From an uncultured Methanosarcinales archaeon (GTDB lineage Archaea; Halobacteriota; Methanosarcinia; Methanotrichales; Methanotrichaceae), in the NCBI GenBank assembly GCA_963843555.1, contig CAWJKV010000003.1:32001-96000 (forward strand): a stretch of 64,000 bases of DNA, written 5' to 3'. Both the position numbers and the translations under genes were made by a program. Positions 7,707-17,032 of this stretch are shown in pieces. A model generated the notes under the pieces. That model was not told where the DNA came from and made no database searches. It saw only the letters and a program-made list of their open reading frames with translations. Each line of letters begins with the position of its first letter. Position 1 is the first letter of the stretch.

Positions 7707-7856
7707 TTATGCGGTCTTATTTTCCTTGGACTTCATCCTCAGGCCATGATAGCTGCACTTACGGCAGCGGGTCGCTTTTACAGGATTACGTGCATTGCAG
7801 CGCATGCATATCTTGAGGTTCAAGATTCTATTTTCTGCTTCAGGAAATCTAGCCAT
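7707..7856 (-). CDS. rpl40e: 50S ribosomal protein L40e
   Basis: [37 protein letters not shown] at 7856. Confidence 0.96.
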
Positions 7857-7912
7857 AACAATCAGCTCTTCGTCGCAACCTAATCTGATATGAAACTTTC
7901 CGTAATAAATAG

Positions 7913-8063
7913 CGCCGGGGTTGGGATTTTCCTGACAGGTCTCTTGCGCCCTGCCATTTTGAACCCAAGTGTCCCTGGAAGGGACAACAGGTCTCGAGCC
8001 TGCCGCGTATGAACTCCCGTCGGCTTTCAGACCGGCGGAATTTGTCCGCTCTGCCACCCCGGC
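7913..8063 (-). tRNA. tRNA-Ser(CGA) with two non-canonical introns (8009-8041 and 7927-7957); 87 nt mature, CCA not encoded
   Basis: After intron removal: acceptor GCCGGGG/CCCCGGC, discriminator G, anticodon arm GCAGG-CTCGAGA-CCTGT, long variable arm TGTCCC/GGGACA, T arm TTGGG-TTCAAAT-CCCAA. Confidence 0.92.
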
Positions 8064-8086
8064 CCGAGTGATTCTCGGTGAGCCCA

Positions 8087-8100
8087 TGCTTTATATCTGT
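8087..8100 (-). promoter_or_regulatory. TATA box for tRNA-Ser and probably the downstream rpl40e-GGGPS genes
   Basis: Minus strand ACAGATATAAAGC about 25-35 nt upstream of the tRNA 5' end. Confidence 0.6.
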
Positions 8101-8144
8101 TGCTCTTCCAAAAGTCCCCTTCAGACCGCAAATTGGGTGAATTA

Positions 8145-9381
8145 ATGTCTCTAAGAAGTGATGCATTAGCGTTTCATAAAGCTGCCAAAGGCAAAATTGC
8201 CGTGCACAGCAAGGTACCTTGCTGCACAAAGCTTGACCTGAGTCTGGCTTACACTCCAGGCGTGGCCGAACCCTGTCGCGAGATCGAGAAGAATCCTGAT
8301 GACGTTTACGAGTACACCGCCAAGGGCAATATCGTGGCTGTGGTGACGGACGGGACAGCCGTGCTGGGTTTGGGCGACATCGGGCCCCTGGCCTCCATCC
8401 CGGTTATGGAGGGAAAGGCCATTTTGTTCAAGAATTTTGCAGGCATCGACGCCTTTCCCATAGCTGTCGCCTCCAAGGATCCCTCGATCATAGTGAACAC
8501 TGTCTCCATGATCGAGCCTGTCTTTGGCGGGATCAACCTGGAGGATATCAGCGCACCTCGCTGCTTTCGAGGTAGAGGAGCGGCTGAAGAAGATCCTGAA
8601 GATACCAGTCTTTCACGATGATCAGCACGGCACAGCCGTAGTCGCCCTGGCGGCATTGATCAACGCCCTCAAGGTGGTGGGCAAGGACTTCGGCGACGTG
8701 CGCGTAGCCGTGAGCGGCGCGGGCGCGGCGGGCATTGCCGTCACCAAATTCCTCCTGAGCTTCGGAGCGAAGGACGTCATCCTCTGCGACAGCCGTGGCG
8801 TGATTCACGGGGATAGGTCCGATCTCAACCCGTCCAAGCAGGAGATAGCCAGAGTCACCAATCCCCGCAATGTTAAGGGCACCCTGGCTGACGCCCTAGT
8901 CGGAGCGGACGTCTTCCTGGGGCTGTCCGTGGCAGGCATTGTGACTCCTGCAATGGTGAAGAGCATGGCCCATGACGCTATTGTCTTCGCCATGGCCAAT
9001 CCCGTGCCCGAGATCATGCCCGATCTGGCACTGGAAGCAGGCGCCCGGGTAGTGGCCACAGGACGATCGGACTTCCCCAATCAGGTCAACAATGTGCTGG
9101 GCTTCCCGGGCATATTCCGGGGAGCTCTGGATGTCCGGGCCAGCGATATCAACGAGCCCATGAAGATCGCAGCCTCGCGGGCCATAGCCGGCCTGGTGGA
9201 GAATGTCTCTCCGGAGTGCATCATCCCTTCGCCACTGGACCGGAGAGTTGTTCCTGCCGTGGCCGAGGCGGTCGCGCGCGCGGCCATAGAGACGGGCGTC
9301 GCCCGCGTGCCGGTTGACCCCGTCGAGGTAAGACGCAGGGCGGAGGCGCTGGTGAGGGATCTGCAAAAGAGCGTTTGCTGA
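8145..9381 (+). CDS. NAD(P)-dependent malic enzyme; frameshift near 8568
   Basis: [44 protein letters not shown] in one frame, then [30 protein letters not shown] in the next. Confidence 0.92.
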
Positions 9382-16087: not shown

Positions 16088-17032
16088 ATGCAGCTAATTA
16101 TCGAGCCTCTGCCGCCCTTTGACTTCGATCTGTCAGCGCAAATCTTCGTGAATGGGGACGGGCGCGTACAAAAGTACGAAGGTAGTGTCTTCTGGCAGAC
16201 AGTTCGGCTGGGAGGGATTCCGGCATTGATCAGAGTTTCATCTCAAGGGACAGTCGACCATCCCCAAATCCTGGTGCAGGTCGAGCCACAGGACGCCTTT
16301 TCCGATGATGATAAAGAGGATATTGAAGCCCTGGTGGTCAGACTCTTCAATCTGAAACTGGATCTATTGTCCTTTTACGAAGCGGTTAAGGATGATCGCA
16401 TAATGCGGCCAATAACTAAACGCCTGTGGGGCCTGCACAGCCCCAGCACGGCCACAGCTTTTGAAGCTCTGATCGACTCCATTATCGAGCAGCAGATCTC
16501 ACTCAAAGCCGCCTGGAGTATGCAGCGGCGGCTGATTGAGACCTTTGGGGAAGCCCTGAACCTGCGGGGCCGCACCTATTTCGCTTTTCCAGAGGCGGAG
16601 AAGCTGGCCGCGGCCACCATTGAAGAGCTGCGCAATTGCGGCCTGAGCGGCAGGAAGGCAGAGTATGTGCAGGGAGTCGCCAGGTTTGTGGCGGGAGGGC
16701 TGGACCTGGAGAATTTCCGGGCCTGGGACGAAAAAAGGATTATCGAAGAACTCAGCCTGATAAGAGGGGTGGGCGTCTGGACGGCGGAGATGACCATGAT
16801 CCGGGGGATGCAGAAGTTTGATGCTTTCCCTGCCGACGACATTGGCCTGAGAAGGCTCATCGCCCGCTATTACTATGGAGGCGAGAAGATCACGGGAGAA
16901 GAGGCGCGGTGCACTGCCGCCGCCTGGTCGGGCTGGCGGGGTCTGGCCAGCTTCTACCTGGTCATGGCCGAAATGCTGCAGATCGAGCCTGAGCTGGACG
17001 AATTATTGGATAAAGATCCGGAGACGGCTTGA
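16088..17032 (+). CDS. alkA: DNA-3-methyladenine glycosylase II (AlkA family)
   Basis: FEALIDSIIEQQIS, GLSGRKAEY, HhH motif IRGVGVWTAEM, FPADDIGL. Confidence 0.9.
   Translation: MQLIIEPLPPFDFDLSAQIFVNGDGRVQKYEGSVFWQTVRLGGIPALIRVSSQGTVDHPQILVQVEPQDAFSDDDKEDIEALVVRLFNLKLDLLSFYEAVKDDRIMRPITKRLWGLHSPSTATAFEALIDSIIEQQISLKAAWSMQRRLIETFGEALNLRGRTYFAFPEAEKLAAATIEELRNCGLSGRKAEYVQGVARFVAGGLDLENFRAWDEKRIIEELSLIRGVGVWTAEMTMIRGMQKFDAFPADDIGLRRLIARYYYGGEKITGEEARCTAAAWSGWRGLASFYLVMAEMLQIEPELDELLDKDPETA

Follow-up and report, generated by a model that had tools for sequence, protein, structure and literature searches.

A tRNA-Ser(CGA) Gene with D-loop and T-loop Introns Is Conserved in Methanotrichaceae

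The stretch analyzed here, referred to as the window, comprises 64,000 nucleotides of a contig from an uncultured archaeon of the family Methanotrichaceae, an acetate-using methanogen. On its minus strand, the 151 nt from 8063 to 7913 contain a tRNA gene in three pieces, from which excision of 8009–8041 (33 nt) and 7927–7957 (31 nt) leaves exons of 22, 51, and 14 nt and a total length of 87 nt. ARAGORN identifies the 87-nt spliced product as tRNA-Ser(CGA), in agreement with the coordinates, lengths, and serine identity given in the initial annotation. The product has a 7-bp acceptor stem, a 5-bp anticodon stem, a long variable arm, a 5-bp T-stem, and the CGA anticodon. Its D-stem contains an A12.C23 mismatch, and there is no intron at the 37/38 site of the gene, as had also been reported. 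The locus has the following features.

8090..8097, minus strand: TATA-like box GATATAAA, read by eye; putative promoter element some 30 nt upstream of the gene
8042..8063, minus strand: exon 1, tRNA positions 1–21, with the GGAC of the intron 1 central helix and two bulge bases at its end
8009..8041, minus strand: intron 1, 33 nt, D-loop site 21/22, relaxed HBh' motif; central helix 8047–8044/8014–8011, intron helix 8040–8036/8019–8015
7958..8008, minus strand: exon 2, positions 22–59, with the anticodon arm (CGA 7996–7994), the long variable arm, and the 5' half of the T-arm
7927..7957, minus strand: intron 2, 31 nt, T-loop site 59/60, hBHBh' motif; central helix 7963–7960/7932–7929, intron helix 7956–7950/7939–7933
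7913..7926, minus strand: exon 3, positions 60–73, ending in the discriminator G73, with no encoded CCA
7707..7856, minus strand: rpl40e, 56 nt downstream of the tRNA (PF01020, E 2e-4, below the curated cut-off)

The TATA-like box is kept, by eye, at an equal distance in 20 related loci (L001–L020). Co-transcription of the tRNA with rpl40e is possible. An open frame of 126 codons (window 7707–8087, minus strand) spans the whole tRNA gene into rpl40e, and a gene caller could stretch rpl40e across the tRNA gene along it; the frame is unlikely to be conserved because the intron lengths of relatives differ by single bases.

A canonical tRNA is obtained when both introns are cut out behind the second base of each bulge. 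ARAGORN makes no call on the unspliced gene or on a form from which the D-loop intron alone has been removed, and removal of the T-loop intron alone leads to a false tRNA-Phe. When two segments were excised at random 3000 times, the outcome was tRNA-Ser(CGA) in 10 cases and a different call in 15; in the 9 listed of these 10 Ser(CGA) products, the second cut lies within 3 nt of the true T-loop site. The intron-less orthologues constitute a natural control that is stronger than random excision. Up to 81 of 87–88 aligned positions are identical between them and the spliced product, both junctions are gap-free in the alignments, and the assignment of the introns to sites 21/22 and 59/60 thus agrees with the uninterrupted genes.

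Another Ser(CGA) gene was not found among 45 ARAGORN calls or by an nhmmer scan and motif searches of the 18 contigs, and neither was an intron-less copy, which the initial annotation had named as part of what would mark this gene as a pseudogene; because the genome is only 82% complete, a second gene could be missing from it. Three specific exon motifs occur once each in the genome, at this locus. A Ser(UGA) gene is present, and a rough tally over long open frames puts UCG at about 13% of serine codons. Ten other tRNA introns were located in the genome, all at 37/38. Further non-canonical tRNA introns were not detected with blastn and nhmmer, a weak search in which the listed extra nhmmer hits did not include the Ser(CGA) gene itself.

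Within the family, 93 of 104 other genomes match the gene, 87 of them across the full two-intron length; of the remaining matches, one is weak and five are interrupted by the end of a contig or by a stretch of N (one was checked). Both introns are present in all 37 of the full-length family copies that were extracted. The comparison of the locus upstream of rpl40e that had been proposed for related genomes shows rpl40e 31–98 nt downstream of the tRNA in 35 of these 37 loci and in none of 6 loci of the neighboring family. A pattern scan of the genome collection gave at least 120 stretches, and a phylum-wide pattern search with one mismatch gave mostly noise beyond a few families. In all, 194 loci were collected, of which 156 (107 distinct) parse as full-length genes; the other 38 were set aside as chance hits in bacteria, truncated ends, loci with a protein gene only, or tRNAs with another D-arm.

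The 156 parsed loci, among the matches listed, comprise four groups. (i) Genes with D-loop and T-loop introns (74 loci, 56 distinct) belong to Methanothrix, Methanosaeta, Methanocrinis, and Methanotrichaceae or to organisms named to higher rank only. (ii) Genes with the D-loop intron only (30 loci, 25 distinct) include those of Methanococcoides, Methanohalophilus, Methanohalobium, Methanosalsum, and Ca. Methanocomedens. (iii) Genes with a D-loop and a variable-arm intron account for 18 loci (10 distinct). (iv) Intron-less genes (34 loci, 16 distinct) include those of Ca. Methanoperedens, Methanogaster, Syntrophoarchaeum, and Mnemosynella. No locus in this set has a T-loop intron without a D-loop intron. 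In the loci examined, the D-loop intron is common to other Methanosarcinia and the T-loop intron is confined to Methanotrichaceae-type genes. A search with an intron-less query missed the Ser(CGA) gene in four of five large genomes of the neighboring family. The nested distribution across lineages suggests that the D-loop intron predates the T-loop intron and that the second introns arose separately. The third group represents a second lineage (with bog_38, fen_29, fen_3, and SPRUCE among its record titles), in which the Ser(CGA) gene has a D-loop intron of 16–18 nt and an intron of 31–32 nt with a full hBHBh' motif in the loop of the variable arm. Excision of both introns from each of the 10 distinct bog_38-type genes leaves an 87-nt tRNA-Ser(CGA), and every one of their precursors is mis-called by ARAGORN.

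In intron 1 the central helix is GGAC/GTTC, the bulges are AAA and ATA, and the intron helix is TTCCG/CGGGA. All four pairs of this central helix are formed in the 56 distinct two-intron genes, the second pair being G-U in 34 and G-C in 22. The exon-side helix is absent in all 56, with C.C, G.G, A.C, and G.G at the corresponding positions, and the motif is therefore of the HBh' type. Intron 2 has the central helix TTCA/GGAA with one A.G at its end, bulges AAA and AAT, and flanking helices TTGGG/CCCAA and TGGCAGG/CCTGTCA. Three pairs of the central helix are invariant in the 56 genes, and the fourth is A.G in 43, A-U in 10, G.A in 2, and G.G in 1, so that it is Watson-Crick in only 10; one canonical intron of the same genome likewise has a central-helix mismatch. 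The exon-side helix h of this intron is the 5-bp T-stem in 56 of 56. Every helix and bulge that had been described for the two introns is thus present, including the missing exon-side helix of intron 1. The accompanying view that both motifs are relaxed is correct for the D-loop site; the T-loop motif is not clearly relaxed, as both of its outer helices are present.

The 56 distinct genes have 47 different D-loop introns (30–47 nt) and 49 different T-loop introns (30–44 nt), and only 20 mature sequences; exons 1 and 3 each differ from those of the window by at most one base in all of them. The intron helices have a mean of 6.6 (D) and 5.5 (T) contiguous pairs as compared with 0.74 and 0.62 in 200 shuffles, and the stems covary through two-sided changes such as C-G/T-A, although the counts of helices and changes overstate the number of events because sequences of kin are not independent. 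Predicted pairing probabilities of the D and T central helices have medians of 0.00 and 0.01 over 37 genes, and the full BHB fold lies a median of 7.1 kcal/mol above the minimum. Central-helix pairing values of 0.10 or less are likewise found for four of the ten canonical introns in this genome. Folding energy was rejected as a discriminator, as it does not separate the Ser(CGA) introns from canonical ones. In Logan contigs of four RNA-labelled runs (85% likeness) no spliced joint was found, and the introns are present in every piece that spans a junction; these pieces come partly from related strains and are possibly DNA, and contigs drop rare forms, so that an absence of splicing is not inferable from them.

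The EndA gene, on contig C5, has two repeats in one frame, with two PF02778 and two PF01974 matches, and no second EndA-like gene was found in the 82% complete assembly. The closest structure is that of A. fulgidus EndA (E 5e-43). In an alignment with the A. fulgidus enzyme, the catalytic Tyr, His, and Lys are located in the second repeat. By sequence, the enzyme belongs to the α'2 homodimer type, as expected from the earlier reference to homomeric EndA. It has no L1/CSL, L2/ASL, or L3 insert beside the active site, as indicated by gaps relative to the CSL-bearing chimera 3P1Y and to ARMAN-2 4FZ2. Twenty-two aligned enzymes from two-, one-, and no-intron lineages show no lineage-specific insert. 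A lysine in the GFYGKP sequence was considered as an explanation and rejected, as intron-less lineages have it and the enzymes of two genomes with a D-loop intron do not. The rtcB gene is present but frameshifted in the assembly (contig C10, about 72078). The malic enzyme gene beside the tRNA is also frameshifted, at about 8564 of the window (frames 8100–8621 and 8524–9381). Both breaks occur where three consecutive T precede CGA and are probably assembly errors of one kind.

The two-intron gene is already known as a machine prediction, so that the novelty implied in the initial annotation does not hold. The tRNAscan-SE 2.0 supplement lists it in three Methanosaeta genomes (PMC8450103, supplementary file S1, Archaea_v20_diff.ss), with lengths of 151 nt in M. 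concilii GP6, 150 nt in M. harundinacea 6Ac, and 153 nt in M. thermophila PT; all three entries are "novel" rows there, absent from tRNAscan-SE 1.3. All three orthologues share the T-loop site of the window. In M. harundinacea 6Ac, with introns at 23–55 and 106–136, both sites equal those of the window. The D-loop intron is misplaced in the other two of the three reference genomes (at 14–38 in M. concilii, giving a 95-nt product, and at 22–56 in M. thermophila, two bases off), and the exons of the printed M. concilii precursor, by eye, equal those of the window when it is cut at the sites found here. The same file gives the D-loop 21/22 site for M. evestigatum and M. mahii as well as for M. 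harundinacea 6Ac. The available part of the main text (bioRxiv 10.1101/614032) does not discuss the Ser(CGA) predictions. M. thermophila was included in a 2008 SPLITS screen (PMC2237900), and there may be records older than the supplement. In the literature covered, in which subscription papers are thinly represented, we found no discussion of this gene and no assay in which an EndA from Methanotrichaceae acts on it. Neither ARAGORN nor tRNAscan-SE 1.3 reports the gene, and Rfam, at gathering thresholds, finds nothing in the window. The expectation that standard pipelines miss or mis-call it was therefore justified, and the common tools drop or mis-call the sole Ser(CGA) gene of Methanothrix-type genomes.

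The Ser(CGA) genes of Methanosarcinaceae (Methanohalobium, Methanohalophilus, Methanosalsum, Methanococcoides), as far as their entries go, share the D-loop site, the GGAC central helix, and the missing exon-side helix, but they lack the T-loop intron and have a different intron interior. A similar arrangement is described for the euryarchaeal Methanopyrus kandleri pre-tRNA-Glu(UUC), which has two introns, one of them in the D-loop (20b/21) with a relaxed HBh' motif; the EndA of this species likewise has no specificity loop (PMC5829648). There, however, the second intron is canonical and the enzyme is (αβ)2, whereas in the present case neither intron is canonical and EndA is of the α'2 type. 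Introns at the same T-loop site, 59/60, are recorded in ARMAN-2 (PMC3239211), and multi-intron tRNAs of Thermoproteales have several introns per gene, as in the present case. These two groups are described as having loop-bearing ε2 or (αβ)2 enzymes and many disrupted genes, in contrast to the ten other introns of this genome, all at the canonical site.

The two-intron tRNA-Ser(CGA) gene is real and conserved, and its conservation suggests that the organism splices it. We consider it highly probable that this is a functional single-copy gene with two BHB introns and its own promoter, cut by EndA and joined by RtcB. The precursor would be transcribed from the TATA promoter, the single α'2 endonuclease would cut behind the second base of each 3-nt bulge, RtcB would join the exons, and the 87-nt product would then receive CCA and be charged. 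Assembly errors or integration scars in place of introns might be suspected from the presence of at least two single-base frameshifts in the assembly and of an orphan tRNA-Leu 3' half elsewhere in it. However, both insertions are at identical places in 74 loci from independent assemblies, contigs of public runs and the three complete genomes with published entries contain both as well, and no duplicated tRNA end flanks them; the family-wide conservation of both insertions refutes this reading, whose probability we put at next to nil. It is also very improbable that the gene is a pseudogene or permanently unspliced, with UCG read by tRNA-Ser(UGA) through wobble. The Ser(UGA) gene, the A12.C23 mismatch, and the lack of a spliced joint in the contigs of the four RNA-labelled runs are compatible with such a loss of function, but the mismatch also stands in most of the intron-less orthologues, promoter and position are conserved, and the exons of the family are near-invariant while the introns drift with compensating changes.

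For a functional gene, the means of excision is the main point of discussion. In the accessible parts of the literature, a review assigns one strict intron at 37/38 to euryarchaea with α4 or α2 enzymes (PMC4090602), relaxed motifs are said to be removed efficiently by loop-bearing enzymes only (PMC6379350), and A. fulgidus α'2 EndA failed on a D-loop HBh' intron in vitro (PMC5829648). The T-loop intron appears to mimic the canonical 37/38 geometry on another 5-bp stem with a 7-nt loop, and a strict enzyme could plausibly cut it because of this resemblance; the D-loop intron, with its exon-side helix missing, would be a harder substrate. For a loop-type motif at 37/38, the folded tRNA body is reported to help the A. 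fulgidus enzyme (PMC6379350), but here the central helices of both introns occupy bases of the elbow (G18/G19 and U54–A57), so that help of this kind seems unlikely before splicing. We give about even weight to the proposal that the loop-less α'2 endonuclease of Methanosarcinia alone removes the relaxed HBh' D-loop intron and that tRNA-Ser(CGA) has been a repeated intron landing site in the phylum, where an old D-loop intron would have been joined by the T-loop intron in Methanotrichaceae and, separately, by the variable-arm intron in the bog_38-type lineage. A rather unlikely alternative is that the gene is spliced but EndA needs help on the D-loop intron, in the form of a cofactor, base modification, or refolding after T-loop excision. 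The lack of a second EndA-like gene in the assembly argues against it, and in other families 30 loci have the D-loop intron but no T-loop intron, so that prior removal of the T-loop intron is not generally required. Furthermore, few enzymes, those of A. fulgidus and T. acidophilum in the table of PMC6379350, stand behind the "narrow" label of the α'2 type. The EndA of this genome has more residues (350 versus 305) and a less decayed first repeat. If the loop-less enzyme does act alone, the rule that relaxed motifs need loop-bearing enzymes would be broken. What remains of value beyond the earlier prediction is the correction of the intron boundaries, the lineage distribution, and an apparent conflict with the stated specificity of loop-less α'2 enzymes, for which this family-wide gene is a natural substrate with one-intron, two-intron, and intron-less genes as natural controls.

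Several other observations concern tRNA genes and repeats. The orphan tRNA-Leu 3' half is at 346229–346271 of contig C5 (minus strand) and resembles what an integration site would leave behind; a complete tRNA-Leu(TAG) with the same end exists in relatives, and no Leu(TAG) or Leu(CAG) is called in this assembly. The ARAGORN tRNA-Arg(TCT) at 16921–17001 of the window (plus strand) does not show the D- and T-loop sequence typical of tRNAs and is apparently a false call, and a normal Arg(TCT) is present on contig C7. On contig C6 (72416–72506, minus strand), what ARAGORN labels "Ser(GCT)" is a tRNA-Arg(GCG) interrupted by a canonical intron of 18 nt. The tRNAscan-SE 2.0 supplement (PMC8450103) also lists a further D-loop intron in tRNA-Arg(CCT) of M. 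thermophila PT; Arg(CCT) of the present genome is intron-free at that position. Weak nhmmer hits on contig C12 (about 100230–101270, minus strand) correspond to an imperfect direct repeat array with a period of about 125–130 nt.
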